Shown here piece by piece: positions 9,195 through 38,997 of a stretch of 64,000 bases of DNA (the first letter of the stretch is position 1; each line of letters opens with the position of its first letter). The notes under the pieces were generated by a model. The model saw only the letters and a list, made by a program, of their open reading frames with translations, made no database searches and was not told the origin of the DNA. The position numbers and the translations under genes are program-made. This stretch comes from Ilumatobacteraceae bacterium (GTDB lineage: Bacteria; Actinomycetota; Acidimicrobiia; Acidimicrobiales; Ilumatobacteraceae): NCBI GenBank assembly GCA_032121425.1, contig JAUMDU010000071.1, positions 6,317 to 70,316 of the forward strand. The letters are read 5' to 3'.

Positions 9195-9269
9195 TGGGGA
9201 ATGGTGTAATTGGCAACACAGCAGTTTCTGGTACTGTTATTCAGGGTTCGAGTCCTTGTTCCCCAACCA
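9195..9269 (+). tRNA. tRNA-Gln (anticodon CTG), CCA encoded
   Basis: Cloverleaf folded by hand. The 7-bp acceptor stem is TGGGGAA/TTCCCCA, the D stem GTGT/ACAC, the anticodon stem GCAGT/ACTGT with loop TTCTGGT, and the T arm CAGGG-TTCGAGT-CCTTG. Confidence 0.9.
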
Positions 9270-9315: not shown

Positions 9316-9391
9316 GCTCCCATCGTCTAGTGGCCTAGGACACCACCCTCTCAAGGTGGCGGCACGGGTTCGAATCCCGTTGGGAGTGCCA
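9316..9391 (+). tRNA. tRNA-Glu (anticodon CTC), CCA encoded
   Basis: Folded by hand. The acceptor stem is GCTCCCA/TGGGAGT, the D arm GTCTAGTGGCCTAGGAC, the anticodon stem CCACC/GGTGG with loop CTCTCAA, and the T arm ACGGG-TTCGAAT-CCCGT. Confidence 0.9.
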
Positions 9392-9547: not shown

Positions 9548-12217
9548 ATGAAATCAAAGAGTTACGTCCGTTCTCTAGTTCTCGGTGGCGTGCTAACTCT
9601 TCTTCTGGCGGCATGTGGAAATGGGCCTGCAACTGAGCCTGTTGAACCTGTTGAGCCAACCGAGCCCAGACACATTGTCATCTCGGAGATCTACTACCAC
9701 TCAATCACAGATGATGATTCGGATGACTTTATTGAACTGTTTAATGCTCATGACCAGCCAGTGGCATTGACAGGATGGTGCATTAAGGGAGTTGGGTATT
9801 GTTTTACCGATACCACGGTGTTGGAGTCTCAACAATATGTTGTTGTGTACGGGAAAGACTTTTCTGGTCGTTTAGGGAACAAGGGCGAACAAATTCGCAT
9901 TGTTGATGCACAAGAAAACATTCGCGACGAAATCGATTATTCAGATTCAAATCCGTGGCCACAATCTGCAGATGGAGATGGGGATGCACTCCATAGGAAG
10001 AATCTTTTACTGAGCGCAAATTCTGTAGATAATTGGGTTGCTGCGCCACCGACACCAGGCGAAATGTTTGACGAGGCCAAGAAGTTATCTACCCGAGACA
10101 ATTCTGATGTGGTGATGACAGAGATTCACTACAACCCCGTCGATGGCAACCCTGCAGCCGAATTCATTGAATTACAGAACTTGACATCGCAGGCACTGAC
10201 TCTTTCGGGATGGTGCATTGATGGTGCATCTATTTGCCTGACCCAACAAGATGTCATAGAACCACTTGGAAGTTTTGTGGTGTCGGGATTAACCGGGGCG
10301 TTGTCGTTGAGTAACTCAGGTCAAGCATTGCGATTGGTTGACAGCGATGGATCTGTTCATGACTTTGTGAGATACGCCAATAACGACCCGTGGCCAGCCC
10401 TTGCAGATGGCTTTGGGCACTCGTTGCATAGACGGAGCACTTCGTTACAAGGGAATTCACCAGCCAATTGGGTCTCGGGAGACCCTAGTCCGGGAAAGAA
10501 TTCAGCGATTGATATCGCTGAGCCTCTCCAGTTTTTTGAAAAAGTGACGCATACACGCTCACCTGCACCTGGGACACCTGTAGCTGTTTCAGCCTTCAAC
10601 GGAAACTTAACAACGGCAACTTTGCACTATCGCTATGGTTTCGATGAAGAACAATCTGCTGTGATGACGAAAAACACTGAGGGTAAGTGGACCGGCTCAA
10701 TTCCGGGATCTGGAGACGGCACTTTGATTCGCTTTCGACTCACCGGCGAACTGGGTGACGCAGTCGCTCAATGGCCCCGACAGGGCGATGGTTCGCAGTA
10801 CGCGGGGACAGTGGTCTTGTCACCCAGTGCATCTCCTTTGCCACGTCTTCAATGGTTCATGGATGCCAGAAGCTTTTCTGATTTGCGGAATAAGAGAAAA
10901 CTTGTTGGTGATACTGGTTTTCCTGCAGTCTTTGCATTCAACGGTGAAGTTATTGATAATGCATTGATTCGGGTCAAAGGTCAGGAATCTCGAGGACGTG
11001 AAAAAAACAAATACAAGGTGACCTTGCCCGCAGGACGCTTGTGGGACATGGGGGGGAGTCTTGAAAGTCCCGTGAATGAATTTGGTCTGCATTCAATGCT
11101 GACAGATAAGTCTTATTCCAGAGAACTGCTGACTTATGACTTGCAAAAGGTTTCAGGTGGAATGGCCCAACAGGTTTTCCCATTGCGTCTTGAGTTAAAC
11201 AATGAGTTCTATGGGCTCTATCTCTACCATGAACAGCCAGACGGAAGATGGCGAAAGAAATATGGTTTTGATGGAAATTCTGTGGCCATTAAGGGTGAGC
11301 GCATTTCCACGTTACGTCGTTCACATACGATGCGCACTGATCAGAAAATGGATATCGATTATCGTCGTCAGACGCAGAGGTATAACTTTCATCACAATGA
11401 AATGCGTTGGTTGATCGACCAAGTTAACCAAGACGAGAGCAAGGTCATTGACTTTATTTATCGCCATGTAGATGTTCCGCAAGTTGTCAATGCACTAGCT
11501 GTACAACGTGTGGCACAACATGTTGAACTTGAACACAAGAACTGGTTGATGTTTTTTGATCCCCGAGATGAGAAGTGGCGTTTTCAGGCAATTGACCATG
11601 ACTTGAACTTTGGAAAAAAATGGACCGCTGGGTGCAAATCACGATGTGATGAGGTATTTGCAAATCCATACATGACCTACATGCAAGCGAATCGTTTCAC
11701 GAGAAGTTTTGTGATCATTCCTGAGTTTCGTGAACTTGTCGACAGGCGTACGAGAACTCTGGTCGACGCATTCCTAAAAGAGGGAATCATCGAGAGCCGA
11801 TTAACAGAGCTGCATGCGGCGATGGAAATAGATGCAAAACTCGACAAGGCCAAGTGGGGGCAATATGGAATCCGTCAAACCCTAAAAGAGGCACAAGACT
11901 TGATTGTTGAAGGGTATGTCAAGCCTAAGCGCGGGTTTTACCTGCGCTTAGATGAAAAGTACTTACCACTTTCCCAGAAAAATGTGATTTCTTATGTTCT
12001 TGACGATTCACAGGCCGGAGTGGTGCGTATCTCTAATTCGGACACAACGAGTATTGATCTTTCCGGAATATCGCTACCCAGTATCGAGGGTCGTGTTGCT
12101 TCAGGAACTGTTCTTTGGCCAGGACAATCGGTTGTTGTCACGAGCAGAAGAATTCCCCGTGGAGAAGTGCAGAACAAGGATTTGCATGTTGCCATGGCAC
12201 CTGTTGCCAACGATTAG
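9548..12217 (+). CDS. lipoprotein with two lamin-tail domains, an Ig-like domain and a CotH kinase domain (CotH-A)
   Basis: Signal peptide with lipobox LLLAAC(23). Two LTD-like repeats (ISEIYYH..DDFIELFN..LTGWC..; MTEIHYNP..EFIELQN..LSGWC). The CotH core includes NEFGLHSMLTDKSYSRELLTYDL, FYGLYLYHEQPD and IDHDLNFG. The C-terminal segment also looks LTD-like. Confidence 0.8.
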   Translation: MKSKSYVRSLVLGGVLTLLLAACGNGPATEPVEPVEPTEPRHIVISEIYYHSITDDDSDDFIELFNAHDQPVALTGWCIKGVGYCFTDTTVLESQQYVVVYGKDFSGRLGNKGEQIRIVDAQENIRDEIDYSDSNPWPQSADGDGDALHRKNLLLSANSVDNWVAAPPTPGEMFDEAKKLSTRDNSDVVMTEIHYNPVDGNPAAEFIELQNLTSQALTLSGWCIDGASICLTQQDVIEPLGSFVVSGLTGALSLSNSGQALRLVDSDGSVHDFVRYANNDPWPALADGFGHSLHRRSTSLQGNSPANWVSGDPSPGKNSAIDIAEPLQFFEKVTHTRSPAPGTPVAVSAFNGNLTTATLHYRYGFDEEQSAVMTKNTEGKWTGSIPGSGDGTLIRFRLTGELGDAVAQWPRQGDGSQYAGTVVLSPSASPLPRLQWFMDARSFSDLRNKRKLVGDTGFPAVFAFNGEVIDNALIRVKGQESRGREKNKYKVTLPAGRLWDMGGSLESPVNEFGLHSMLTDKSYSRELLTYDLQKVSGGMAQQVFPLRLELNNEFYGLYLYHEQPDGRWRKKYGFDGNSVAIKGERISTLRRSHTMRTDQKMDIDYRRQTQRYNFHHNEMRWLIDQVNQDESKVIDFIYRHVDVPQVVNALAVQRVAQHVELEHKNWLMFFDPRDEKWRFQAIDHDLNFGKKWTAGCKSRCDEVFANPYMTYMQANRFTRSFVIIPEFRELVDRRTRTLVDAFLKEGIIESRLTELHAAMEIDAKLDKAKWGQYGIRQTLKEAQDLIVEGYVKPKRGFYLRLDEKYLPLSQKNVISYVLDDSQAGVVRISNSDTTSIDLSGISLPSIEGRVASGTVLWPGQSVVVTSRRIPRGEVQNKDLHVAMAPVAND

Positions 12218-12963
12218 GGCTTGAGAAGATGCAGTACAGATTTCCAGGGGGCCCCTCCAAGATCGGGGCGCAGTGCTGTCAGGGCCACGCAGTACTTACT
12301 CACACTTGAGGGGCGAATTCCCATCTGCGTGAAAATTCGATGAGTTGGACCTACTTGGGCGGGAGACTTTATTTCAACAATTGCGTTATGGGCACCAAGA
12401 TTTGTTGATGCGTCATGAAGTGTCGCATGTAAATTCGTGTCGATGGTAATTCTTTCTACCGCAGTAGGAATAAAAAAAGTGCTGCGTAGAAATGTGGTCT
12501 CTAGGGTTTTTACAAAGGTGCCCTTGAGGGCATCGTAGGAAGCATTCGCCAAAGCACCGTTAATCATTCCTCTGTGCCCATCCCCCAAAGGGCTGTGTAC
12601 ATCGTTGACATCCAGTGCCCAACGAACTTTCTGCGTCTGTCCTCGAGACATCTTTATTTTGATCTCAAGATATCCATCTGATGATGCTCCGTAATAACGC
12701 GTTCGAATTTTGAAGCGCTTCCGACGCTGTTTCAGGTGATCAAAATAAGTCTGAAAGTCAACAGTGTCGTAATAGTTAGTTACATACGAAGTATTGGAGT
12801 TTCCTTCAATTGTGAGAATTTTCGTCGATGATGGCAGTGCGTCATAGAGTTGACTGAGTTGATGTAACGGCACAACATATTTAGTGTCAAAACGACGTAG
12901 AAGCTCCGCTTGTGAAGATAACTCTTCTAATGAAATTGTTTCAAAGCGAGATAGAGAGCCCAT
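12214..12963 (-). CDS. VTC domain protein (Vtc4-like triphosphate-tunnel / polyphosphate polymerase-type)
   Basis: 249 aa. Charged beta-strand motifs RFDTKYVV, NYYDT, RFKIRTRYY and YLEIKIKM are typical of the TTM/VTC catalytic tunnel. Its stop overlaps the CotH-A stop, and its start overlaps the DUF4956 stop (TAATG). Confidence 0.7.
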   Translation of the reverse strand: MGSLSRFETISLEELSSQAELLRRFDTKYVVPLHQLSQLYDALPSSTKILTIEGNSNTSYVTNYYDTVDFQTYFDHLKQRRKRFKIRTRYYGASSDGYLEIKIKMSRGQTQKVRWALDVNDVHSPLGDGHRGMINGALANASYDALKGTFVKTLETTFLRSTFFIPTAVERITIDTNLHATLHDASTNLGAHNAIVEIKSPAQVGPTHRIFTQMGIRPSSVSKYCVALTALRPDLGGAPWKSVLHLLKP

Positions 12964-13529
12964 TAGTGGTTAGCACGCACATCCAAACGCATTGTCTCGC
13001 GCACAAAATCAATTTCAAGCACCGTAAGTCGCTTTACAGATCCAGCGATACGCGTCTCAACAAAGGATTGCAGTTCTGATTCATCGGTAATGATGCGGTC
13101 TAGTTCAATACGAAGTTTTTGGTACTGCTGGGGCTTAATGAGTAATGGATGGTCGATGATGAACATGGTGACAACGAGCAAGGTGGAGAATACAATTTTG
13201 ATGTCTGTACTGAGGCCGGGAAGCCCCGTCATGAGACCGATGACAAGTGACACCATTGTGTAACCAATCTCTGATTGGGTGGCCTCATCGGAGCGAAGAC
13301 GAACTATTGATAAGACAGCAAATAGTCCAAACCCGACGCCCACATTCAAAGTGGTGGATGAGGATAGAGCCGCAGATACGACGAAGAGGCTGACGTTGGT
13401 GGCGATATAGCCCACGGTTGCATCGCGACGTCGATGCCGCAGATAGTAGATAAAGAAAGCCAATATGACAATGGCAACTGCATTGATCGTAAAGTCTCGG
13501 AGAAGGGTGGGTAGATCAAGTTCGTTCAT
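12963..13529 (-). CDS. DUF4956 family integral membrane protein
   Basis: About 4-5 hydrophobic helices. GFGLFAVLSIVRLRSDEATQSEIGYTMVSLVIGLMTG resembles the DUF4956 core, and a ~65-aa soluble tail follows. I chose the ATG at 13529 (MNELDLP) over the listed 13589 start. Confidence 0.65.
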   Translation of the reverse strand: MNELDLPTLLRDFTINAVAIVILAFFIYYLRHRRRDATVGYIATNVSLFVVSAALSSSTTLNVGVGFGLFAVLSIVRLRSDEATQSEIGYTMVSLVIGLMTGLPGLSTDIKIVFSTLLVVTMFIIDHPLLIKPQQYQKLRIELDRIITDESELQSFVETRIAGSVKRLTVLEIDFVRETMRLDVRANH

Positions 13530-13568
13530 GACAAACGGTGAGCATAGTCGTCTCGTTACACTCTTTCT

Positions 13569-16235
13569 GTGACGCGTAATGGCAAACATGTACGAATAGT
13601 TGCGATTTCCGCAGTGTTTGCGGTTGTGGCGATTGTGGTAGCCGTGGTGCCCGTATTGCTGTCCCGTGGGAGCGACTCAGTTGCACGTACTGAGGGTCAA
13701 GTCTTTATATCTGAGGTGAACTACCACGATGTGTCTGATCTCGACTCGGCGGACTTTCTTGAGATTCACAATCAGGGCCCCAGCGATGTGGCCTTAACGA
13801 AGTGGTGTGTGACAGGTGTGGGTTTTTGTTTCCAAGACAACACAATTCTTGCTGCTGGCGCCACGGTTGTTGTGTCTGGTACTCAGTTAGAGGGAAAGCT
13901 CAATAACAAGGGTGAGTCTCTTCAATTACGAGACTCGGTGGACAATCTTGTCGATGAAGTTAAGTATTTGGCGAAGCCGCAATGGGCGTATATGTCTGCA
14001 GGGCGAGGTCATTCGTTGCATAGAAGTAAAAGCCAGATAAGCGACGTAGGTGCAGAAAATTGGATTACAGATGTTCCTTCTCCAGGAAAAATTTATAGTG
14101 AGGCTTATAGAAGTACGAAACGAGAAAATGTCTCTGTAGTGATCAGTGAAATTCATTATCATCCTGAAAATGACAACCCAGAAGAAGAGTTTGTTGAGAT
14201 AATTAACATTTCTGACCAAACCGTAGATATTCAAAATTGGTGTCTTGAAGAACTCTCCGTCTGTTTTGGGGCCAATGAGAATTTGGCTCCAAATGAAGTG
14301 CGTGTTGTGCGTCAAGATTCAAAGTCATTTTCACTGAGTAATGGTGGTGGAATCGTTCGACTGGTAGACGGCGTGGGGAAGTTGCAGGATCTGGCGCGTT
14401 ATGAAGACAATGGTTCGTGGCCGGCTTATGCCGATGGTCATGGAATGTCATTGCATCGTCGTGACGGTCATCTGTGGGGCACAGAACCAGGCAACTGGGA
14501 AGCACAAGATCCAACACCAGGCTTTGTAGATGCAATAAAGATGCGTGGGTATCTACCGATCATTGACGAGGTCACAGTGACTCGGTCACCCACCTCTATT
14601 CAACCCATAACGATGAGTGCTCAAGTGCGAGATGGTTCACAATTGGTGCTGCACTATCGTGTGAATTTTGACGATGAAGTAGCAATTCCGCTGCAGCAAG
14701 CTTTCTCTGGGGAGTGGAAAGGAATCATTCCGCCACAGCCAGAAGGTTCCTTGGTTCGCTATCGCCTGAGTGCCAAAGGAGAGAACGAGCAAGGCACCTG
14801 GCCTCGTGCTGGTGACGGGATGGTCTACCGCGGCACTGTTGTCACATCTAGTACCGACACTTTGCTACCACGACTTCAATGGTTTGCTGAAGATGAGTAT
14901 TACGAACAGATATATAGCGATGTGAATATTTATGGAGATAATGGCTATCCCACTGTTATCGCCTTTGATGGTGAAGTTTTTGACGGATCACTGATACGTA
15001 TTCGTGGAAATCAGTCGCGACTGAATCAAAAGAGAAAGTGGAAGATTGTCTTACCGCCTGGCTACGAGACGACATTAGGGGGCCGTTTGGCGCAGCCTGT
15101 CAATGAGTTTGCACTGAATTCTGCTGTGACGGATAAATCTTTTGTTCGCGAGATTTTGACAAGCGAACTTCAAAAGGTTGGGGGAGGAATTGGCCAACAG
15201 ATATTTCCCTTGCGATTGGAACGCAATAATCAATTTTATGGGCTGTATTTGTATCAAGAGCAGCCTGATGGGCGATGGAGACAACGTTGGGGATTCTCAA
15301 ATGAAGCTGTTGCGTTCAAATCTGATCGTCAAGCCACACTGAAAGAGGGTCATCTTGAATTACCTAATTCAGAAATGCGGCAACGATACCAGCGAAGAAC
15401 GCAACGTTGGCTCGACCATACCGATGAGATTCGTGAACTTATACGACAGATAAATAACGATAACCAGAAGGAACTTTTAGCCTTTATATACCGACATCTT
15501 GATATTCCTCAAATTGTTGAGGCAATCGCAACTATGCGGGTCGCCCAACATCTTGAATGGGAGCACAAGAATCATCTTCTTATCTTTGATCCTGCAGATG
15601 AGAAATGGCGTCTCATTCCTATTGACTTTGATTTGAACTTTGGGCGGCAGTATGTGGCGGGCTGTAATTCTCTATGTGATGAGGTGTCCGCTAGTGGATA
15701 CATGGAGTACATGGAAGCAAATCGTCTGGGACGTTTGTTTCTTAAGATTCCAGAATTACGCGAAATGCTCGACAGGCGAACTCGAACATTGGCGGATACA
15801 TTTCTCGCTGAGGGATACATTGAAAAGCGCATAGCTGTCTTGGAAGAACTGATTCGTGAAGATGCAGCCAAGGATCGGAAGTCGTGGTTCACCTATGGCG
15901 AGAAGCAATCCATTCAACGTGGACAAGAAATCTTGATAACGAATTATGTGATACCCAAGAGAGAGATGTTGATTGGTCCGAAAGCACGTCGATTACCTGC
16001 TGCCCAGAGTCCAGAAATTCAGTACTCGATAGCGGAACAAGGAGAGGTGACAATCACAAACAATGAACTTGTTGCCATTGACGTGTCCGGTGTTCAGTTA
16101 ACACGTCTGAATGCCCTAGTTCCAGCAGGCACCGTTATTCTTCCCGGCCAGTCTGCTGTTTTTACTCTTGAGAGAACACCAGTTTCAACATTGTTGCCTG
16201 GTCAGTTGCATGTTTGGGTGGCGGCTTTACAGTAA
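13569..16235 (+). CDS. membrane-anchored protein with two lamin-tail domains, an Ig-like domain and a CotH kinase domain (CotH-B, paralog of CotH-A)
   Basis: GTG start and an N-terminal signal-anchor helix. It is collinear with CotH-A over its whole length (ISEVNYHD..DFLEIHN, ISEIHYHP..EFVEIIN, NEFALNSAVTDKSFVREILTSEL, FYGLYLYQEQPDGRWR, IDFDLNFG). Confidence 0.8.
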   Translation: MTRNGKHVRIVAISAVFAVVAIVVAVVPVLLSRGSDSVARTEGQVFISEVNYHDVSDLDSADFLEIHNQGPSDVALTKWCVTGVGFCFQDNTILAAGATVVVSGTQLEGKLNNKGESLQLRDSVDNLVDEVKYLAKPQWAYMSAGRGHSLHRSKSQISDVGAENWITDVPSPGKIYSEAYRSTKRENVSVVISEIHYHPENDNPEEEFVEIINISDQTVDIQNWCLEELSVCFGANENLAPNEVRVVRQDSKSFSLSNGGGIVRLVDGVGKLQDLARYEDNGSWPAYADGHGMSLHRRDGHLWGTEPGNWEAQDPTPGFVDAIKMRGYLPIIDEVTVTRSPTSIQPITMSAQVRDGSQLVLHYRVNFDDEVAIPLQQAFSGEWKGIIPPQPEGSLVRYRLSAKGENEQGTWPRAGDGMVYRGTVVTSSTDTLLPRLQWFAEDEYYEQIYSDVNIYGDNGYPTVIAFDGEVFDGSLIRIRGNQSRLNQKRKWKIVLPPGYETTLGGRLAQPVNEFALNSAVTDKSFVREILTSELQKVGGGIGQQIFPLRLERNNQFYGLYLYQEQPDGRWRQRWGFSNEAVAFKSDRQATLKEGHLELPNSEMRQRYQRRTQRWLDHTDEIRELIRQINNDNQKELLAFIYRHLDIPQIVEAIATMRVAQHLEWEHKNHLLIFDPADEKWRLIPIDFDLNFGRQYVAGCNSLCDEVSASGYMEYMEANRLGRLFLKIPELREMLDRRTRTLADTFLAEGYIEKRIAVLEELIREDAAKDRKSWFTYGEKQSIQRGQEILITNYVIPKREMLIGPKARRLPAAQSPEIQYSIAEQGEVTITNNELVAIDVSGVQLTRLNALVPAGTVILPGQSAVFTLERTPVSTLLPGQLHVWVAALQ

Positions 16236-16237
16236 GG

Positions 16238-17347
16238 CTACGACTGCGATGCGTAGCGCTGGATGAACCTTGAGCGTCGCGCGGGCTGTTCAACCCAGTA
16301 ATACGAGAGTGCACCCAAAGCAAGCGTGGACGCCACGGCAAGTAGAAGCAGAAGAATTTGATTCCATTCACCGGCATGGCGATTCAAAATTGTAAGGACG
16401 GGAATTTGCCAGATATAGAGACCATATGAAATCTTCCCCAGCCATACCATGGGCGAAAGTGTCAAGATGCCGACAATAGGGAAGACGCCATATGCCAGTG
16501 CTAGAACCACAATCATGGTGGAGATATCAAATAATGCCATTCCGCCGTCCCACACAAATGGTTTCCACCCGTCTGCAATGGAATGGATAACGACCATTGC
16601 CAAAACTGCGGGAAGCGACAACATGCGAAGAGTTAATGGCGACAGATAACTGGTCTTCAACCACAACACTGCACCAAGTGCACCCACAACCAAACTGACA
16701 ATGCGAGCATCTGTTCGCAAGTAGGCAGAGAGATATCCGTTGTGATGAAAAATCCATGCAAGCCAAAAATACAGAATCGGTACTAAGGCTGTAAGTAAAA
16801 CAACACTTAGGGTGATTTTTTTGATGACGCGAAATAGAAGGAACATTATGAAAGGCCACACAACGTAAAAGTGGCCTTCCACAGAAAGTGACCACAACGC
16901 GCCATTTTCTTCAAGTAGATCTGTGTTTGACAAGATTGCATAGTTTGCAAACTGGAAAATAGTTGCAGCAACCATGAGAAATTCTTCGCTCATGTTGCCA
17001 AATGGTGGAAAGTCGAAGGCAATGGCATAGATGAAATGCGCAACAAGGAACACAATGACCGCCGGCATTATTCGCACGGTACGGCTGATGTAAAAACGTC
17101 GTAATGCGAGTCGACCATCACCATGGCGAGTGATGAGCAATTTGTAGGTAATGAGAAATCCACTAAGGACAAAGAACATATTGACGCCCAAAAATCCCGC
17201 AGTGCGGAACTGGTTGAACCATGTTTGCTGATCAAGCCATGTGATGGCGATAGGTAGGTGTGACAAGAAGACAACAGCCACTGCGATAGCTCGAATTCCA
17301 TCGAGGCCTGTAATTGGCGAATCGCGTTGTGCGGTGTTGCTGTTCAT
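16238..17347 (-). CDS. acyltransferase family 3 (OafA/YrhL-like) membrane protein
   Basis: ITGLDGIRAIAVAVVFLSHL N-terminal motif and about 10 hydrophobic helices in 369 aa. Confidence 0.8.
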   Translation of the reverse strand: MNSNTAQRDSPITGLDGIRAIAVAVVFLSHLPIAITWLDQQTWFNQFRTAGFLGVNMFFVLSGFLITYKLLITRHGDGRLALRRFYISRTVRIMPAVIVFLVAHFIYAIAFDFPPFGNMSEEFLMVAATIFQFANYAILSNTDLLEENGALWSLSVEGHFYVVWPFIMFLLFRVIKKITLSVVLLTALVPILYFWLAWIFHHNGYLSAYLRTDARIVSLVVGALGAVLWLKTSYLSPLTLRMLSLPAVLAMVVIHSIADGWKPFVWDGGMALFDISTMIVVLALAYGVFPIVGILTLSPMVWLGKISYGLYIWQIPVLTILNRHAGEWNQILLLLLAVASTLALGALSYYWVEQPARRSRFIQRYASQS

Positions 17348-17425
17348 TCAGTAACTCCCATGGGGTATCAACCTAGTGGGCGAGATGTTCTGCCTTGGGG
17401 TGTATGAGATGCGAGACTAGACATA

Positions 17426-18250
17426 ATGGCTGGCGATCTCCTTTCCCTTCCCGAAGCGATCCTTCTGGGCATTGTTGAGGGGATTACCGAATTCTTGCCC
17501 ATCTCATCTACGGGTCACCTTTTAGTGGTTTCTGATCTCATTGGATTTGGGCAGGGCGATGCTGCCAACGCTGCGGACACTTACGCAATTGCTATCCAAT
17601 TTGGTGCAATTTTGGCAGTGTTCGCGCTGTACCGCATGCGTGTATGGTCAATGATGCAAGGTGCAGTTGGGCGTGATACCAATGGCCTGTCTGTATTAAA
17701 GGCACTGGTTGTCGCGTTCTTGCCCGCCGCCCTTCTTGGTGCTGTCTTAGGTGATCGCATCAAGGACGCACTGTTCGGGCCATTACCCGTTGCTGTTGCA
17801 TGGGCAATAGGTGGTCTTGTATTGCTTGTATGGGCCCCACGAGGTGGCACTACGTCTCTTCATCAACTCTCGCTGCGTTCGTCACTCATTATCGGTGTGG
17901 CGCAAGGAGTTGCATTGTGGCCAGGAGTCAGTCGCAGTTTGGTCACACTCATTGCAGGTTTAGCAATAGGGCTTTCACTTGCAGCCGCTATTGAATTCAG
18001 TTTTCTTCTTGGGCTCATTACTTTGACGGCAGCAACAGTGTTTGATACCGCCCGAAATGGAGGAGAACTCATCGACATGTTTGGTATCGCAACACCACTA
18101 GTAGGTGTGGTAACTGCGTTCATTACAGCACTGATTGCGGTGCGTTGGATGGTGAACTATCTCAATAGCCGTTCTCTTGCAATCTTCGGCTGGTATCGAC
18201 TGTGTATTGCAGCTATGGCGTTTGCGTTGATGGCCACCAACGCTTTGTAG
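17426..18250 (+). CDS. uppP: undecaprenyl-diphosphate phosphatase
   Basis: LGIVEGITEFLPISSTGHL motif in a 274-aa polytopic protein. Confidence 0.9.
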   Translation: MAGDLLSLPEAILLGIVEGITEFLPISSTGHLLVVSDLIGFGQGDAANAADTYAIAIQFGAILAVFALYRMRVWSMMQGAVGRDTNGLSVLKALVVAFLPAALLGAVLGDRIKDALFGPLPVAVAWAIGGLVLLVWAPRGGTTSLHQLSLRSSLIIGVAQGVALWPGVSRSLVTLIAGLAIGLSLAAAIEFSFLLGLITLTAATVFDTARNGGELIDMFGIATPLVGVVTAFITALIAVRWMVNYLNSRSLAIFGWYRLCIAAMAFALMATNAL

Positions 18251-18259
18251 AAAACGAAA

Positions 18260-19192
18260 CTATTGTACAAACGGTAAAACTTTGTCTCCAATGAGTGAGA
18301 TGTGATCCAAATCATCGAGATCAAGAACTTGTAAATACATACGAGATGCACCGGTTGTTTTCCATGAAGATATTTTTTCAATCACTTCATCGGGTGTTCC
18401 ACAGATGCCGTTTTGGCGTAATTCGCTGACCTCGCGCCCAATGCGTGTGGCCCGATGTGCAATCTCATTTTCGGTAGAGCCCACACACACCACTTGTGCC
18501 ACTGAATAAATCAATGAATCTGGGTCGCGCTGTACGGCATCGCACGCCGTTCTCACTCGATCACGTTGAGCAACAAAAACATCGGCACTACTGAAAGGGA
18601 GATTGAACTCTGCGGCATACATGGCTGCCAAGCGTGGCGTGCGACGTGGTCCGCCGCCACCCACGATGATAGGGGGTGGGCTTTGAATGGGTTTTGGCAA
18701 TGCAGGGGAGTTCACCACGTTGTAGTGAGCACCGCTATAGGAAAAATTCTCTCCATGTGGGGTGTTCCATAAACCTGTAATCACGGCGAGTTGCTCTGTG
18801 AGAATGTCGAAACGAGTACCAAGCTCGGGGAATGGAATGCCATAGGAGCGATGTTCATCGACATACCACCCCGCACCCAGGCCTAATTCCACGCGGCCAC
18901 CCGACATATCGTCCACGTTGGCCACGCTGATTGCAAGAACACCAGGGTTCCGAAATGTTGCGGAGTTCACTAAAGTGCCGAGACGAATTGTGGAAGTTTC
19001 TCGGGCAATCCCGGCCAAGGTGATCCATGCATCGCTTGGACCTGGCAGTCCGGTTACATGCGTTCCCATTTTTTGGTAATGGTCGCTACGGAAAAATGCA
19101 TCGAAGCCGGCATGCTCGGCACGTTGCGCTACGGCGAGAAGTTGAGAATAACTAGCGCCTTGTTGGGGCTCGGTGAATACACGAAGTTGCAT
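18260..19192 (-). CDS. LLM-class F420-dependent oxidoreductase
   Basis: MQLRVFTEPQQGASY..AEHAGFDAFFRSDH is the typical N-terminus of the F420-dependent luciferase-like family. Length 310 aa. Confidence 0.75.
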   Translation of the reverse strand: MQLRVFTEPQQGASYSQLLAVAQRAEHAGFDAFFRSDHYQKMGTHVTGLPGPSDAWITLAGIARETSTIRLGTLVNSATFRNPGVLAISVANVDDMSGGRVELGLGAGWYVDEHRSYGIPFPELGTRFDILTEQLAVITGLWNTPHGENFSYSGAHYNVVNSPALPKPIQSPPPIIVGGGGPRRTPRLAAMYAAEFNLPFSSADVFVAQRDRVRTACDAVQRDPDSLIYSVAQVVCVGSTENEIAHRATRIGREVSELRQNGICGTPDEVIEKISSWKTTGASRMYLQVLDLDDLDHISLIGDKVLPFVQ

Positions 19193-19201
19193 GACACGAA
19201 C

Positions 19202-19645
19202 TTAACGGGGATGCACCCAGTCCTGGTGTGCAATGCGAAGTTGCAGCGGAAGTCGTGCAAGATGTCTCACGGGTAGATGTGGCAAAACTGTGCGTACAGA
19301 AACCGTGTAGACCGGCTCTAGAGCAACATATTGACTTACGCCGAACATCGAGCAACGATGCAGTGCCCGCGCGAAGGGATTGTGACGGCCTTGGGTATAG
19401 GACACTCCAAGGGCTTGAGCAAGTTCGGTCATCTCACAGACGTATCCCTCAGGTTGGTGAAGTAATCCTGAGACCAGTCGGCGGGCGAGCCAGGTTGCTG
19501 TGGGACCAAGAATGGGAAGCCAGAACATCTCTATGTAGGGATCATCGACTGCATAACCCTGTGTCTCCACAACGGGGTCATTCCATCGAATCACCCTGAT
19601 AGATGACTGTGTTGCAGGCACGGCAATAGGACGTGAAGTTTTCAT
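19202..19645 (-). CDS. conserved hypothetical protein (possible HTH)
   Basis: I chose the start at ATG 19645 (MKTSRPIAV), which has a purine-rich stretch upstream. The longer listed ORF would run into the divergent Sir2 gene. MTELAQALGVS is HTH-like. Confidence 0.45.
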   Translation of the reverse strand: MKTSRPIAVPATQSSIRVIRWNDPVVETQGYAVDDPYIEMFWLPILGPTATWLARRLVSGLLHQPEGYVCEMTELAQALGVSYTQGRHNPFARALHRCSMFGVSQYVALEPVYTVSVRTVLPHLPVRHLARLPLQLRIAHQDWVHPR

Positions 19646-19700
19646 GGACTCTCTTTCTTGCTGGTTCGGCGAGATGTGTGCAAAACAGCAAGAATGAAGG

Positions 19701-20492
19701 GTGATGTTTGATGATCTTCCCGATGATGAATCCATGAGCGAGGTTGCACAGTGGGTGCGAGAGGCGCAACGAATTGTGGTTTTCACTGGTGCAGGTATTT
19801 CTACTGATTCAGGAATTCCTGATTTCCGAGGTCCGAATGGATTGTGGACACAGAACCCATTGGCTGAAAAAACATCAACACTGAGTTATTACCTTGGAGA
19901 CCCCGAGGTACGCAAGGTTGCATGGGAGGGTCGTGTGCGCACATTCGGTGGCACTGCTCAACCCAATGCTGGACATTTTGCTGTCACTCAACTACATCGG
20001 TCGAAGAAATTGCATGCGGTGGTGACACAAAATGTTGACGGCCTGCACCAAGCAGCAGGTCTCGATGATGAGATGGTTGTAGAGGTGCACGGCACTATTC
20101 GCTATGCACGATGTTGGCAATGTAAAGACCGACGACCGATGAGTGAATTCATAGAACGTGTGAAAGCTGGCGAGGTAGATCCACCATGTGAACTCTGCGG
20201 TGGCATTGTCAAGAGCGATGCAATTTTGTTTGAGCAAGCATTGGTTCCAGAAGTGATCAATCGCGCAATGCAAGTGGCTCAAGAATGCGACTTGATGTTG
20301 GCAGTGGGGTCCACCTTGGCGGTGACGCCAGCGGCATATGTGGTTGACCGTGCGCGAGCAAGTGATGCCAAGGTGGCAATTATCAATGGTGGTCCCACAG
20401 AGCGAGATCGCTATGCCCATGTCCTTTTGAGAGGTGGAATCAGCCCCATTTTGTCTGCCTTGTTGGAGCGAGCAGGCCTCGCGGATCAGTGA
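19701..20492 (+). CDS. cobB: NAD-dependent protein deacylase (sirtuin, Sir2 family)
   Basis: FTGAGISTDSGIPDFRG, VTQNVDGLH, and a Zn ribbon CWQC...CELCGG. Confidence 0.9.
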   Translation: MMFDDLPDDESMSEVAQWVREAQRIVVFTGAGISTDSGIPDFRGPNGLWTQNPLAEKTSTLSYYLGDPEVRKVAWEGRVRTFGGTAQPNAGHFAVTQLHRSKKLHAVVTQNVDGLHQAAGLDDEMVVEVHGTIRYARCWQCKDRRPMSEFIERVKAGEVDPPCELCGGIVKSDAILFEQALVPEVINRAMQVAQECDLMLAVGSTLAVTPAAYVVDRARASDAKVAIINGGPTERDRYAHVLLRGGISPILSALLERAGLADQ

Positions 20493-20522
20493 ATTCCCGA
20501 CTTAGTCGGTAGGGTTTTGGTC

Positions 20523-21689
20523 ATGGCAACGTTTCGTGACCTTCTCGCACAAGCAAAATCTCACATTACTGAAATAGATACAGCTGAAGCCCAGCAAAAG
20601 ATTGAGGGCGGAGGCGTCTTGGTCCTGGATGTACGTGAGCCCGATGAATTCGAACAAGGTGCGCTACCTGAGGTCTTGCATATTCCTCGCGGACATCTTG
20701 AAGCCCAAATTGAAGGTCGTGCTACAGACCGCGATCAAGCCATTGTGGTGTATTGCGCCGGTGGTGTGCGCAGTGCCTTTGCCGCGCGCACTCTTCAAGA
20801 ACTTGGCTACACGAATGTGTTTTCCATGGCCGGTGGATTTGGCAAGTGGAAAGACGAAGGTCGCCAATGGCGTCAACCTGTCACATTGACACCTGATCAA
20901 CGCAACCGTTACCAGCGACACTTGTTGTTGCCGGAAGTGGGAGTAGAAGGACAAGCCAAACTTCTCGGTGCCAAAGTGTTGATGCTGGGTGCAGGCGGAC
21001 TTGGTTCACCTGCGGCGTTGTATCTTGCAGCAGCTGGTGTGGGCACCATTGGTATTGTCGATATGGACGAAGTCGATGCATCTAACTTGCAACGTCAAAT
21101 TCTTCACAACATTGATCGTGTGGGGCAACGCAAAGTGGAGTCTGCTCGTCAAACAATCGCCAAACTCAACCCCGATGTTGTGGTGAATACCTATGACACT
21201 CGACTTGACGCGAGCAACATCATGGAGATCATGGCGGGCTATGACGTAGTCGTTGACGGCGCAGACAACTTCCCCAGTCGTTACTTGTTAAATGATGCAA
21301 GCGTGAAGTTAGGCATTCCAGTTGTGCACGGAAGTATCTTCCGATTCGAAGGAATGGTGTCGGTCTTCCATCCAAAACTTGGACCTACCTATCGCGACAT
21401 GGTTCCCGAGCCGCCACCTGCTGAACTGGCACCTTCGTGTGCAGAAGCGGGAGTTCTTGGTGTGTTGCCAGGAATTGTGGGATCCATTCAGGCACTCGAG
21501 ACACTCAAGATTATTTTGGAATTGGGCGAACCATTAATTGGTCGCATCTTGACAATTGACACCACCGAGATGTCATTTCGGGTGTTCAAATTGCGAGCAG
21601 ACCCCAATAATCAGGTTGTTTGGGAGAATCGGGACCGTATTGAAGTGCGAGATCTCGACGGATTGTGTGCTCCCTGGTTGAGCCACTAA
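20523..21689 (+). CDS. rhodanese-ThiF/MoeB fusion (E1-like adenylyltransferase/sulfurtransferase, rhodanese N-terminal)
   Basis: The N-terminal rhodanese domain carries the active-site loop CAGGVRS. It is followed by NRYQRHLLLPEVG..GAGGLGSPAALYLAAAGVG..DASNLQRQ and SCAEAGVLGV. I chose ATG 20523; a TTG at 20517 is also possible. Confidence 0.8.
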   Translation: MATFRDLLAQAKSHITEIDTAEAQQKIEGGGVLVLDVREPDEFEQGALPEVLHIPRGHLEAQIEGRATDRDQAIVVYCAGGVRSAFAARTLQELGYTNVFSMAGGFGKWKDEGRQWRQPVTLTPDQRNRYQRHLLLPEVGVEGQAKLLGAKVLMLGAGGLGSPAALYLAAAGVGTIGIVDMDEVDASNLQRQILHNIDRVGQRKVESARQTIAKLNPDVVVNTYDTRLDASNIMEIMAGYDVVVDGADNFPSRYLLNDASVKLGIPVVHGSIFRFEGMVSVFHPKLGPTYRDMVPEPPPAELAPSCAEAGVLGVLPGIVGSIQALETLKIILELGEPLIGRILTIDTTEMSFRVFKLRADPNNQVVWENRDRIEVRDLDGLCAPWLSH

Positions 21690-21756
21690 ACACACTCTTT
21701 GTTCAGTAGTGCCAGCAAGACCATTTAGTTGTGCCGCGCCTACTAGCGTTTCCTAG

Positions 21757-22905
21757 ATGACAGCTTCGATTGTGATTGTGGGCGCCGGGTTCTCTGGCGC
21801 TGTTATCGCTCGGCAACTGGCCGAGGCTGGTATTGCATCATGGGTCGTGGACGGTCGAAACCACGTGGCAGGCAATGCCCACACGGAACGGCGAAGTAAT
21901 GGCGTAATGGTGCATGTGTATGGCCCACACATCTTTCATACAGCTGACACTCGCGTATGGGAGTACATCAATCGTTTTGGTGCAATGGAGCCCTACAACC
22001 ATCGAGTGAAAGCAACCTCTCAAGGTGCGGTGTATTCCTTGCCGGTCAACTTGCACACCATTAATCAATTTTTTGATCTCACGTTGTCGCCAAGTGAAGC
22101 CGAACAATTCATTTCTTCACGGGCAGATACCTCCATTGGAACCCCTGTGTCATTTGAAGATCAAGCTTTGAAATTTGTGGGACGCGAACTCTATGAAGCC
22201 TTCTTTAAGGGATACACACAAAAGCAATGGGGAGTGTCTCCTACAGAACTTCCTGCATCAATTCTTGCGCGCCTTCCTGTGCGTTTTTCTTATGAGGACA
22301 GTTACTTCAATCATCCTTATCAGGCGATTCCTCGCGAGGGGTACACCCCAATTGTGGAAGCAATGCTGGATCACCCACTGATCGAAGTGACGTTGAATAA
22401 AAAAGTGACGCCAGATGAATTGAAAACTGCAGAACATGTGTTTTGGTCTGGACCCATCGATGAATACTTTGGTGGGCAATTTGGGCGACTTGGGTATCGC
22501 ACTTTGGACTTTGTGGAAACCGAAACACAAGGGGACTTTCAGGGGTGTCCCGTGATGAATTATTGCGATCTTGACGTTCCTTACACGCGCATCACTGAGC
22601 ACAAACATTTTGCGCCATGGGAGACCCACGCGGGAACCACGCTGTACACCGAGTACAGCCGACTGGCCGAAGAGGGCGACATTGAGTACTACCCAATTCG
22701 CCAGGTGAAAGAAAAAGAACAGCTGCACCAATATGTGGAAGCTGCAAGAAATGCTCAAAAGGTAACTTTTATGGGCCGATTGGGCACCTATCGCTATCTA
22801 GACATGGATGTCACCATCAAAGAGGCTCTCGAAGTTGCCGATGAATTCTTGGCATGCCGGCGTGACTCTCGCCCAATGACACCTTTGGTGGTTCAACCCC
22901 TGTGA
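21757..22905 (+). CDS. glf: UDP-galactopyranose mutase
   Basis: IVGAGFSGAVIA FAD motif and GPHIFHT, 382 aa, followed by a GlfT2-like GT2. Confidence 0.9.
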   Translation: MTASIVIVGAGFSGAVIARQLAEAGIASWVVDGRNHVAGNAHTERRSNGVMVHVYGPHIFHTADTRVWEYINRFGAMEPYNHRVKATSQGAVYSLPVNLHTINQFFDLTLSPSEAEQFISSRADTSIGTPVSFEDQALKFVGRELYEAFFKGYTQKQWGVSPTELPASILARLPVRFSYEDSYFNHPYQAIPREGYTPIVEAMLDHPLIEVTLNKKVTPDELKTAEHVFWSGPIDEYFGGQFGRLGYRTLDFVETETQGDFQGCPVMNYCDLDVPYTRITEHKHFAPWETHAGTTLYTEYSRLAEEGDIEYYPIRQVKEKEQLHQYVEAARNAQKVTFMGRLGTYRYLDMDVTIKEALEVADEFLACRRDSRPMTPLVVQPL

Positions 22906-22915
22906 AACTAGGGGG

Positions 22916-24667
22916 GTGACGCTTCATCCCCTAGCTCGGATTCAGATTCCCAAAGCCTCTTTCTCGGAGCCTTCTTTGTATTTGCGCACCGAGCCAGGAG
23001 TGTTAACCGACAGTGGTGCGCGGCTCAATATTGGAGATCGCATCTCTTTTGATACTGCATTTGGCGTATTTGCCGTTGGGCGCTGGAAGCGGCTGAGCAC
23101 CATCGTTGATGTGGTGGCCAATATCGACATTGAGGGCGCTGCGCGTATTGATCTAGTAGCCCATAGTTCTGGTGCCGACATTGTTATTGATTCAACAGAT
23201 ACAGAGAGCAGTGTGTGTTGCCCCAATTTGTCCACACTTGATTGCGAATCTCTTTATGTCACGGTGACTGCACTTGCAGATGGAGTGTACGTCACCGGTG
23301 GACAATGGTTAACGTCGACGGCCCCAGAGCGAGATGTCCATCTCGGTGTTGCAATCACTACGTTCAATCGACAGGAATACGTGCTTGCGACCATTGACAA
23401 ACTCATTGAGATTGAAGCAACAATTTCAAGCGTGACGGGTCATATGCAAGTGTTGGTTGTAGATAATGCAAGAAATCTTTCGCCACAGATTCCCGCAGGG
23501 GCACCAGTGAAGGTTTTGGAGAATCCCAACCTGGGTGGTGCTGGCGGTTTTGCACGCGGCCTCATTGAGTTTCGTGAAGCGGGGTGGAGCACTCATGTGG
23601 TGTTCATGGATGATGATATTTCTCTTGAACCAGAATCAATCTTGCGCACAATTTCATTACTGACGTATGCGCGTTCAAAAGATTTGTGTATTCACGGAGC
23701 CATGATGAGCGAAGAGTTGCCATGGATGCAGTTTGAGGCGGGATCGGCGTACGAGTTTCGATCCGTGTATCCCTTGCGGGCACACGGGCGCGGGATTGAC
23801 TTGCGCGATAGAAATGAAATCCTTTCGGACGCAGCAGAAATCGATCTTGATTACTCTGCATGGTGGTTCACCGTGTTTCCTATGCATATTGCAACAGAGA
23901 ACCCTTTGCCAGTATTTGTGCGAGGCGATGACGTCGCTTTTGGCCTTATGCACACGGGTCAACACACGGTGACAATGCATGGCATTGCGGTATGGCATGC
24001 AGACTTCGCGCTCAAGAACAATCCCTCATCGTTGTATTACGAGGTGCGCAACTTTGCCCTAATTGACACCTTGGTCTTTGATAAGCACACACGCTGGCAT
24101 CTGGCATGGCGCTATCTCGGGTTTGGTTTCCGCAATGCGTATTCACATCGTTATGCAAGCGCGGAATACATGATTTGGGGAATGAAGGATTTTCTTGCGG
24201 GCCCTAGTGAATGGATGAAGATTGATCATTCTGCAAAACATGACGAATTGCGCCAAGTTCAAGAGGAGAAAGCATCTTCGTTAACTCCAGAGATGCTGCA
24301 ACTAGGTTTTACTCCGACCAAGCACAAGGCAATTCGACTTGTGGGGTTCATGATGTCGCCGCTATTTGGAGGCGGGCGTTGGTTGCCACAGGCCTTGCGT
24401 ACAAAGAAGTTCGGCGTTGCACAAATTGATGTGCGTGCAGTCGGCTTGGCAATCCGACACGACAAGATCTTGTATCGTCATCCACGTTTTGAAGAGGGCT
24501 TTATTTGTGAACGTGATGCGGTTCGTTTTTCACGTATTCAGAAGGAAGTTTTCACAACGACTTTGAGGCTTTTGCGCACTTATAAAGCGCTTAAGAAGTC
24601 GTATCGCAATCAGTATCCCGAAATGGTGAGTACTGAAGCGTGGAAAAAACGTTTTTCACCCTACTAA
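22916..24667 (+). CDS. galactofuranosyltransferase GlfT2-like glycosyltransferase (GT2)
   Basis: GVAITTFNRQEYV..VVDNA..NLGGAGGFARG..FMDDDI..RGDDVAFG pattern in a 583-aa protein, immediately downstream of glf. Confidence 0.7.
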   Translation: MTLHPLARIQIPKASFSEPSLYLRTEPGVLTDSGARLNIGDRISFDTAFGVFAVGRWKRLSTIVDVVANIDIEGAARIDLVAHSSGADIVIDSTDTESSVCCPNLSTLDCESLYVTVTALADGVYVTGGQWLTSTAPERDVHLGVAITTFNRQEYVLATIDKLIEIEATISSVTGHMQVLVVDNARNLSPQIPAGAPVKVLENPNLGGAGGFARGLIEFREAGWSTHVVFMDDDISLEPESILRTISLLTYARSKDLCIHGAMMSEELPWMQFEAGSAYEFRSVYPLRAHGRGIDLRDRNEILSDAAEIDLDYSAWWFTVFPMHIATENPLPVFVRGDDVAFGLMHTGQHTVTMHGIAVWHADFALKNNPSSLYYEVRNFALIDTLVFDKHTRWHLAWRYLGFGFRNAYSHRYASAEYMIWGMKDFLAGPSEWMKIDHSAKHDELRQVQEEKASSLTPEMLQLGFTPTKHKAIRLVGFMMSPLFGGGRWLPQALRTKKFGVAQIDVRAVGLAIRHDKILYRHPRFEEGFICERDAVRFSRIQKEVFTTTLRLLRTYKALKKSYRNQYPEMVSTEAWKKRFSPY

Positions 24668-24671
24668 GTAG

Positions 24672-38991: not shown

Positions 38992-38997
38992 AACGAC

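Follow-up and report, generated by a model that had tools for sequence, protein, structure and literature searches.

The locus at positions 9548-16235 of the window (the whole 64,000-nucleotide stretch of Ilumatobacteraceae DNA that was analysed) raises the question of what a soluble VTC-domain protein and a DUF4956 membrane protein, encoded side by side between two CotH-type kinase genes, produce at the membrane, and where their product goes. The reading judged best, with about even confidence, was that of a membrane-docked polyphosphate (polyP) polymerase that would deliver its product to the envelope, where the CotH proteins act. All four open reading frames (ORFs) were recovered as previously annotated, with hardly any spacing between them, and hidden Markov model (HMM) searches placed every domain named in an earlier note on this DNA (VTC, DUF4956, CotH and LTD) above its Pfam threshold. 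The module is made up as follows:

9548-12217, + strand: CotH1, 889 aa (Pfam LTD 2.1e-33, CotH 3.8e-30)
12214-12963, - strand: VTC protein, 249 aa (Pfam VTC PF09359, 1.4e-27)
12963-13532 (ORF open to 13589), - strand: DUF4956 protein, 189 aa from MNELD (Pfam PF16316, 8.7e-45)
13533-13568, no strand: divergent spacer between DUF4956 and CotH2, about 36 nt, read from the sequence
13569-16235, + strand: CotH2, 888 aa (Pfam CotH 3.2e-33, LTD 1.5e-30)

The two CotH genes are read from the + strand and the DUF4956->VTC pair from the - strand, so that the module comprises at least three transcription units; a single four-gene operon was rejected because the genes run on opposite strands. CotH1 and VTC were convergent with overlapping stop codons, and DUF4956 and CotH2 diverged across the short spacer (about 36 nt). 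Within the coupled pair DUF4956 lay upstream, and its TAA stop codon shared bases with the ATG of VTC (TAATG), in agreement with the earlier description of a free soluble VTC protein translationally coupled to DUF4956. As judged by homolog alignment, the true DUF4956 start is probably at 13532 (MNELD) and not at 13589.

The VTC protein and its relation to Vtc4

The VTC protein matched the Pfam VTC profile with 97.2 bits (cutoff 23) over profile positions 2-234 of 235, and carried no signal peptide, transmembrane (TM) segment, SPX domain or Vtc4 membrane domain. Across an alignment of 37 diverse homologs, extending down to about 30% identity, 24 residues were invariant and fell at alternating positions of predicted strands. 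The conserved motifs were R24-x-D26-x-K28, Y60/Y64/D66 and R83-x-K85-x-R87-x-R89-x-Y91, then E100-x-K102, T110-x-K112 and R160-x-T162, and finally R171-x-T173-x-D175, E197-x-K199 and S222-K223. The strings RFDTKYVV, NYYDT, RFKIRTRYY and YLEIKIKM, taken earlier as signatures of the tunnel fold, were all present in the ORF and coincided with family-invariant residues.

Yeast Vtc4 (3g3q) was found by a profile search of the PDB with the VTC alignment (E 4e-6); single-sequence phmmer searches of VTC and of CotH1 against the PDB gave nothing useful, profiles being required. Sub-profiles of the C-terminal half of VTC did not retrieve Vtc4 by sequence, and the relationship was settled by an hhalign comparison with fungal Vtc4 fragments (probability 96.9%, E 1.5e-10, 218 columns). 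The AlphaFold2 model of the VTC protein had a predicted local distance difference test (pLDDT) of 93.3 and a predicted TM-score (pTM) of 0.90, and its top nine Foldseek matches were Vtc4 chains (E 1e-13 to 7e-12, TM-score 0.57-0.66). Hydrolases among the triphosphate tunnel metalloenzymes (TTMs) matched more weakly, ygiF at 3e-9 and the others at 6e-8 or weaker, with ThTPase and AtTTM3 among the matches. The domain called 'VTC' in PMC6514570 is the unrelated treble-clef domain of Vms1 and was set aside.

A cryo-electron microscopy (cryo-EM) study of yeast VTC gave K200, R264, R266, K281, Y359, R361, E426 (Mn2+), S457 and K458 as triphosphate/Mn2+ ligands, with K458 as the sole ligand changed (to Ile or Leu) in the inactive Vtc2 and Vtc3. 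Mapping through the profile alignment, the fungal Vtc4 fragments and the profile-profile alignment yielded the following bacterial equivalents:

Vtc4 K200: K28, invariant in the 37 homologs
Vtc4 R264: R87, invariant in the 37 homologs
Vtc4 R266: R89, invariant in the 37 homologs
Vtc4 K281: K104, K or R in 36 of the 37 homologs
Vtc4 Y359: F158, F or Y across the family
Vtc4 R361: R160, invariant in the 37 homologs
Vtc4 E426: E197, invariant; assigned by hhalign and motif spacing, not by structural superposition
Vtc4 S457: S222, invariant; assigned by hhalign and motif spacing, not by structural superposition
Vtc4 K458: K223, invariant; the S-K-Y-C motif aligns with fungal F-S-K-F

Eight of the nine ligands were thus retained in the window protein, K458 included and Y359 excepted, the basic ones being K28, R87, R89, K104, R160 and K223. 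The full-length Pfam match, a fold closest to that of Vtc4 and the retained ligands upheld the assignment of the ORF to the Vtc4-type tunnel enzymes. Likeness to the eukaryotic VTC complex (PDB 3g3q/3g3r, 8i6v, 7ytj) covered the Pfam family, the tunnel fold, the eight ligands and the placement of the catalytic domain, in the cytoplasm and at a membrane. Unlike that complex, the window enzyme is a free protein of 249 aa without SPX, fused three-helix membrane domain or Vtc1/2/3 partners, and DUF4956, its bacterial partner in the membrane, shows no relationship to that complex in sequence or in detectable fold. Identity between Vtc4 and the window VTC was about 16-18%, and, besides Phe at the Y359 position, the latter differed by an additional invariant Asp (D26) and by additional basic residues (R83, K85).

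Such differences leave some room, small in our estimate, for a tunnel enzyme other than a polymerase, acting in hydrolysis of triphosphate, polyP or nucleoside triphosphates or forming another phosphoanhydride product, with DUF4956 serving as a sensor or regulator through its C-terminal domain. Most characterised TTM proteins are hydrolases, ygiF, ThTPase and AtTTM3 were secondary structural matches, the invariant D26 occupies the Vtc4 Thr198 position and could bind a second metal, and the Phe at the Y359 position points the same way. However, the protein kept the residue by which active Vtc4 differs from the inactive Vtc2/3 (K223 for K458), and sequence and fold comparisons alike ranked Vtc4 above every hydrolase TTM. 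The motif of the first tunnel strand is RxDxK, with an Arg that matches Vtc4 R196, where hydrolase-type tunnel enzymes carry ExExK; an Arg at the first motif position, as in Vtc4, argues against this alternative. As judged from the sequence and the model, polyP polymerase activity of the VTC protein appears fairly probable.

The stand-alone architecture was general. When clustered at 50% identity, the VTC family had 13,541 representatives up to E<=1e-3 and 2,748 up to E<=1e-30, nearly all of them 240-290 aa long and almost uniformly stand-alone. Among the top 150 representatives, the only odd architecture was that of P0340 (611 aa), in which the VTC domain was fused to WD40 repeats.

The DUF4956 partner

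The DUF4956 protein matched its Pfam profile with 152.9 bits (cutoff 30.6) over positions 1-168 of 169, and its model displayed five predicted helices followed by a C-terminal beta-alpha-beta-beta domain. DUF4956 alignments held 47 invariant positions, among them those of the basic loops RHRRRD and VRLRSDE. By the positive-inside rule, both loops and the C-terminal domain would be cytoplasmic, on the side of the VTC protein.

A regulatory role of DUF4956, as supposed by the non-polymerase alternative, would agree with Foldseek matches of its C-terminal domain to ACT-type domains (AcuB, AHAS regulatory subunit, TyrA), which were non-significant (E>0.1) and obtained with a low-confidence model. 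The authors of a 2025 mBio study likewise called the Streptococcus intermedius homolog SIR_1592 MgtC-like, with an ACT-like C-terminal domain (PMC12345266). No Pfam match of DUF4956 to MgtC was obtained even at E<=1.

Comparison with three related loci (L007-L009) gave identities to the window of 85-87% for DUF4956, 50-51% for VTC and 71-76% for the CotH domains. DUF4956 was more conserved than the enzyme coupled to it, with 87% against 51% for VTC in L007 and 93% against 63% in L005; such conservation is unusual for a small membrane protein.

Conservation of the pair across genomes

Two censuses were made, the first of 80 genome loci found with the DUF4956 alignment, whose ORFs were scored with HMMs built for this analysis, and the second of 80 Bacteroidota-type metagenome loci, with counts taken over the loci with enough sequence to judge. 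VTC was directly downstream of DUF4956 in 78 of the 80 genome loci, and the order VTC->DUF4956 was found in all 58 Bacteroidota-type loci. Of the co-occurrence of three families expected earlier, the near-obligate pairing of DUF4956 with VTC therefore stood (78/80; 58/58), and CotH as a constant partner did not (23/80; 1/25). A physical complex of VTC with DUF4956 is likely.

Exceptions to the pairing were few. A Pontimonas metagenome-assembled genome (MAG; L023, 807-3920), which additionally has an LTD protein, and an Acidimicrobiia MAG (L057, 1133-3347) carried CotH with DUF4956, VTC being absent even at E<=10. In Carboxylicivirga (L087, 8001-9841), a Bacteroidota locus, a short CotH-like ORF came immediately after VTC, and DUF4956 was absent. 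Together with the pairs, all three pairwise combinations of VTC, DUF4956 and CotH exist.

Bacteroidota-type loci (L090-L169, L002, L003 and L084) displayed a co-directional VTC->DUF4956->DUF2490 order, DUF2490 being the next gene in 44 of 48 loci and a TonB_C-like gene in 10 of 43. A signal peptide was present in the DUF2490 proteins, which matched outer-membrane barrel families weakly; in Bacteroides thetaiotaomicron, BT3498-99 is such a DUF4956/DUF2490 pair (BT3498 being the DUF4956 gene). As predicted from these sequences, the Bacteroidota set would span the cytoplasm, the inner membrane and the outer membrane, which fits a trans-envelope role. Other loci linked the pair to secreted proteins and exopolysaccharide genes: in Alistipes a CotH gene lay 8 kb from the pair; in L086 genes for a family 2 glycosyltransferase (GT2), UDP-glucose dehydrogenase, a NosD-like protein and ManC preceded the pair, with a CotH protein after it; and one pair was followed by a gene for a secreted Cthe_2159 carbohydrate-binding protein. 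The Bacteroidota barrel gene and these links to secreted CotH/Cthe_2159 and exopolysaccharide genes argue, by comparison among loci, that the product would be bound for the envelope or beyond.

Actinomycete loci without CotH had other neighbours. An OmpR-type response regulator gene adjoined the pair in 21 of them, individual loci had histidine kinase (HAMP-HisKA) genes or a PAS-GGDEF-EAL gene beside it, and the Microbacterium pair adjoined a sensor kinase gene. These regulator neighbours (L033-L083, L001 and L085) suggest signal-controlled expression of the pair. They also bear on a second alternative, to which we give clearly less weight than to an envelope-bound product, namely that the pair makes or anchors cytoplasmic polyP at the membrane, as a store of phosphate or energy or in stress signalling, with no export, and that CotH is merely co-regulated nearby. 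In filamentous actinomycetes the pair has two-component systems or a GGDEF-EAL gene as neighbours, and a secreted partner was not identified there; DUF4956 has no channel homology, CotH linkage is facultative, and the authors of the S. intermedius preprint held that polyP stays cytoplasmic since other VTC subunits are absent. A storage enzyme, however, has no obvious need for an obligate polytopic partner that is conserved at 85-87% when the enzyme itself is conserved at 50-51%. The outer-membrane-barrel-like protein added by the Bacteroidota operon (44/48 loci) and the recurrence in several phyla of links to secreted CotH/Cthe_2159 and exopolysaccharide genes likewise speak against a purely cytoplasmic product.

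The CotH proteins and their linkage to the pair

Two paralogous proteins of about 889 aa had been described on either side of VTC/DUF4956, and this was confirmed (889 and 888 aa); the two share 44% identity over 846 aa. Pfam CotH scores were 105.9 and 116 bits (cutoff 23.8), and the kinase-domain profile aligned end to end with Bacillus cereus CotH 5jd9 (E 4.8e-36, residues 3-349). CotH1 was a predicted lipoprotein, with an MKSK...LLLAAC lipobox and Cys24, and CotH2 had a predicted N-terminal anchor, so that the extracytoplasmic location proposed earlier was predicted for both. Their parts are the following, the middle segment being CBM56/CBM48-like at sub-threshold scores in Pfam segment scans:

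~9662-9943, + strand: CotH1, LTD
~10094-10375, + strand: CotH1, LTD
10493-10870, + strand: CotH1, CBM-like segment, weak
~10967-11908, + strand: CotH1, CotH kinase domain
~11984-12151, + strand: CotH1, partial LTD
~13593-13661, + strand: CotH2, N-terminal basic stretch and membrane anchor or uncleaved signal, followed by LTD-LTD and the middle domain
~14994-15941, + strand: CotH2, CotH domain, followed by a partial LTD

Inactivation of B. subtilis CotH by D228Q or D251A has been reported (PMC7821199). At the D228 position, both window paralogs and all aligned Acidimicrobiia LTD-CotH proteins have Glu (HVELEHKN in CotH1, ~11468-11491; HLEWEHKN in CotH2, ~15498-15521), and more distant CotH proteins have Asp. 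The Asn five residues on (N233) and the D251 equivalents (IDHD/IDFD) were retained in the window proteins. The replacement may, speculatively, reflect another substrate or donor. Compared with the Bacillus spore-coat kinase (5jd9/5jda), the whole kinase domain aligned, with the Asn and the metal-binding Asp kept. The window proteins differ in being predicted extracytoplasmic, surface-anchored and LTD-flanked, and in the Glu that replaces the catalytic Asp; the window organism is no spore former, and no CotB/CotG-type substrates were found nearby.

In the first census, CotH lay within 10 kb of the pair in 23 of the 80 actinobacterial/Chloroflexota loci: 20 of the 29 Acidimicrobiia/Nitriliruptoria-type loci, two Thermomicrobiales and one further Acidimicrobiia locus. 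The recurring Acidimicrobiia core was a CotH gene divergent from DUF4956->VTC; CotH could be single, doubled in tandem or, as in the window, present on either side of the pair. That this layout is a local accident, with CotH functionally unlinked to the pair, was judged very improbable. The opposite strands exclude one transcript, and most loci outside the Acidimicrobiia are without CotH; yet the divergent CotH<-|->DUF4956-VTC layout persists in Acidimicrobiia at VTC identities of 30-36% to the window, and the trio is met again in Firmicutes, Bifidobacteria and Thermomicrobiales as well as in an unclassified exopolysaccharide (EPS) locus. A near-identical tract shared with a related genome also argues against an accident.

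This tract became apparent in comparison with a Lake Mendota Ilumatobacteraceae MAG (L004, JBIIBO010000006.1), with which the window shares a DUF4956 protein of 100% identity. Positions 9868-13576 (CotH1, VTC and DUF4956; 3.7 kb) had 97.5% DNA identity to the MAG, while 13694-23544 (CotH2 onward, housekeeping genes included) had about 83% (72-90% per 500 nt). Identity broke at 13576-13694, in the spacer at the DUF4956/CotH2 boundary; on the left the tract could be followed as far as the MAG contig reaches, which stops inside CotH1. The window is a close relative of this MAG and a different genome, and the 3.7-kb tract looks like the result of recent recombination or transfer.

Related systems

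The VTC/DUF4956/CotH trio is not new, having been described beside Gram-positive pel operons. Whitfield 2020 (10.1101/768473, PMC7112168) listed cotH, a 'poly-phosphate polymerase', DUF4956 and DUF4832 as accessory genes contiguous with pel in streptococci, clostridia and bifidobacteria, and the cotH, polyP-polymerase and DUF4956 families are also present in Clostridium perfringens NELoc-2 (PMC11677781). In S. intermedius, the model of SIR_1593 resembled Vtc4, and that of SIR_1592 had several TM segments and a small C-terminal domain; deletion of SIR_1592 (DUF4956) or SIR_1594 (CotH) shifted the Pel level and aggregation, and the trio was not found outside pel loci by the authors (mBio 2025, PMC12345266). 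What is new here is a member outside any pel locus, with duplicated LTD-CotH genes. Reviews and papers from 2023-2026 list VTC as eukaryotic, and only PPK1 and PPK2 for bacterial polyP synthesis.

The window module and the Gram-positive accessory set (SIR_1594-1592) share three adjacent families, a CotH protein predicted to be secreted, a VTC protein predicted to be cytoplasmic with its catalytic residues, and a multi-TM DUF4956 with a small C-terminal domain. They differ in that the window has two CotH paralogs on the strand opposite to the pair, LTD instead of FN3 domains in CotH, and a freshwater acidimicrobial host. A scan of 44 ORFs spread over the 64-kb window gave neither Pel-family nor DUF4832 matches.

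Synthase-dependent secretion of Pel, poly-N-acetylglucosamine (PNAG), cellulose and alginate offers an analogy only, through a polymerase at the cytoplasmic face with an inner-membrane partner, a co-operonic outer-membrane barrel in diderms, and linked extracytoplasmic modifying enzymes. The module is not homologous to those systems, its polymer would be inorganic, and no cyclic di-GMP (c-di-GMP) receptor or tetratricopeptide repeat (TPR) scaffold was evident.

Proposed mechanism and its weighing

Under the preferred reading, DUF4956 and VTC would work as one machine of two proteins at the cytoplasmic membrane. VTC, a soluble protein, would dock on the cytoplasmic side of the five-helix DUF4956 protein, with the conserved Arg-rich loops and the small C-terminal domain of the latter as candidate docking surfaces, and would there most likely build polyP out of a nucleoside triphosphate. 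The product would be handed to, probably through, the envelope. The two surface-anchored LTD-CotH kinases would share this envelope pathway, acting on wall or exopolymer components and possibly using exported polyP. Translocation of the product across the membrane, suggested by comparison among loci, seems almost as likely as its opposite. ATP is normally unavailable outside the cell, which makes extracytoplasmic CotH proteins fed with polyP attractive; polyP as the CotH phosphodonor is nevertheless rather unlikely. A fuller version, in which DUF4956 and VTC are a minimal prokaryotic polyP synthase-translocase feeding polyP to surface CotH kinases, would make them a third bacterial polyP route and possibly the ancestor of eukaryotic VTC, with wall polymers, exopolysaccharides or surface proteins as CotH targets; phosphoanhydride energy would in this way reach the ATP-free space beyond the membrane, and the kinases would take phosphoryl groups from polyP instead of ATP. 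Taken as a whole, this version was considered improbable.

Several observations weigh against the preferred reading. At the enzyme, Vtc4 Y359 is replaced by Phe (F158) in the window protein, and Y359F reduces polyP in yeast according to the cryo-EM study of yeast VTC. At the membrane, profile search and Foldseek gave no significant similarity of DUF4956 to the VTC channel subunits or to any PDB chain, and its AlphaFold2 model had low confidence for the membrane segments (pLDDT 63.5, against about 82 for the C-terminal domain), so that no pore can be argued for. The earlier proposal of DUF4956 as a possible channel equivalent gained no support, no resemblance to the Vtc1/Vtc4 channel or to anything solved being detectable. 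No fusion of VTC with DUF4956, and none with CotH, was present among the top 150 VTC family representatives.

Linkage to CotH is also incomplete. No CotH gene was found in about 50 Streptomyces/Amycolatopsis/Actinomadura-type loci in which the pair was present, and only 1 of 25 long Bacteroidota loci had one within 8 kb, the other 24 being without; the core must then work without an adjacent CotH. Given Glu at the catalytic-Asp position, kinase activity of these CotH proteins is no more than plausible. In S. intermedius, deletion of SIR_1593 (VTC) gave no significant change in aggregation, unlike deletion of its neighbours (PMC12345266). The statement made earlier that the function of bacterial VTC/DUF4956/CotH clusters is experimentally undefined held true, the literature search having met no functional study of the bacterial family and no biochemical study of any VTC/DUF4956 member.

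Genomic surroundings of the module

The kinases had been described as the only neighbours of the pair, which did not hold: an acyltransferase gene and uppP/BacA abut the module, and two tRNA genes lie just upstream. The flanking features are:

9195-9269 and 9316-9391, upstream of CotH1: tRNA-Gln(CTG) and tRNA-Glu(CTC)
16238-17347, - strand: Acyl_transf_3 membrane acyltransferase (Pfam 6.8e-29), a possible accessory gene
17426-18250, + strand: uppP/BacA undecaprenyl-diphosphate phosphatase (Pfam 8.6e-67)

Upstream lay gltX, DUF218 and TetR genes, with tRNA-Gln and tRNA-Glu between them and CotH1, and luciferase-like, SIR2 and MoeB-like genes followed Acyl_transf_3 and uppP/BacA downstream. The Acyl_transf_3 gene recurred beside the module in 5 related loci, its family there being taken from size and position with none of that neighbour cluster scanned, and uppP/BacA was conserved in 6 related loci. 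Module G+C was 0.46-0.475, against about 0.51 in the flanks; this lower G+C is compatible with an insertion beside the tRNA genes.

Further cell-envelope genes lay at 21757-27107 and 37975-41076 of the window. They encode a UDP-galactopyranose mutase, a GlfT2-like galactofuranosyltransferase, an 811-aa SpoIID and peptidoglycan-binding protein, an LCP (LytR-CpsA-Psr) ligase and a PAS-GGDEF-EAL protein, and hint at a galactofuran-type wall polymer in the Acidimicrobiia lineage of the window. The nearest GGDEF-EAL gene was 23 kb from the module, and the ORFs that were scanned over the 64 kb of the window included no ppk.

Rfam gave the two tRNAs and nothing else in 8.5-18.5 kb. A promoter/terminator scan displayed no excess over shuffled sequence and is uninformative for this phylum, and NCBIfam had no match for any of the four proteins. 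An anti-phage system was rejected as no PADLOC defence-system model matched, the only match being an LTD domain at the CotH1 C-terminus (E 1.3e-4).

Significance

Bacterial stand-alone VTC proteins form a very large family in which the Vtc4 catalytic set is preserved and a single membrane protein is the nearly constant partner. Should the family prove active, it would be an overlooked polyP enzyme in gut Bacteroidota (in B. thetaiotaomicron, BT3498-99 and the neighbour gene), in streptococci and clostridia, and likewise in Streptomyces and in abundant freshwater actinobacteria. If its product is exported, this would explain the supply of a phosphoryl donor to secreted CotH-type kinases, and polyP would be tied to biofilm and wall polymers. 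The comparative data reduce the problem to a two-gene core that is testable in tractable organisms, and the window itself matters less than its pointing to a very large enzyme family.

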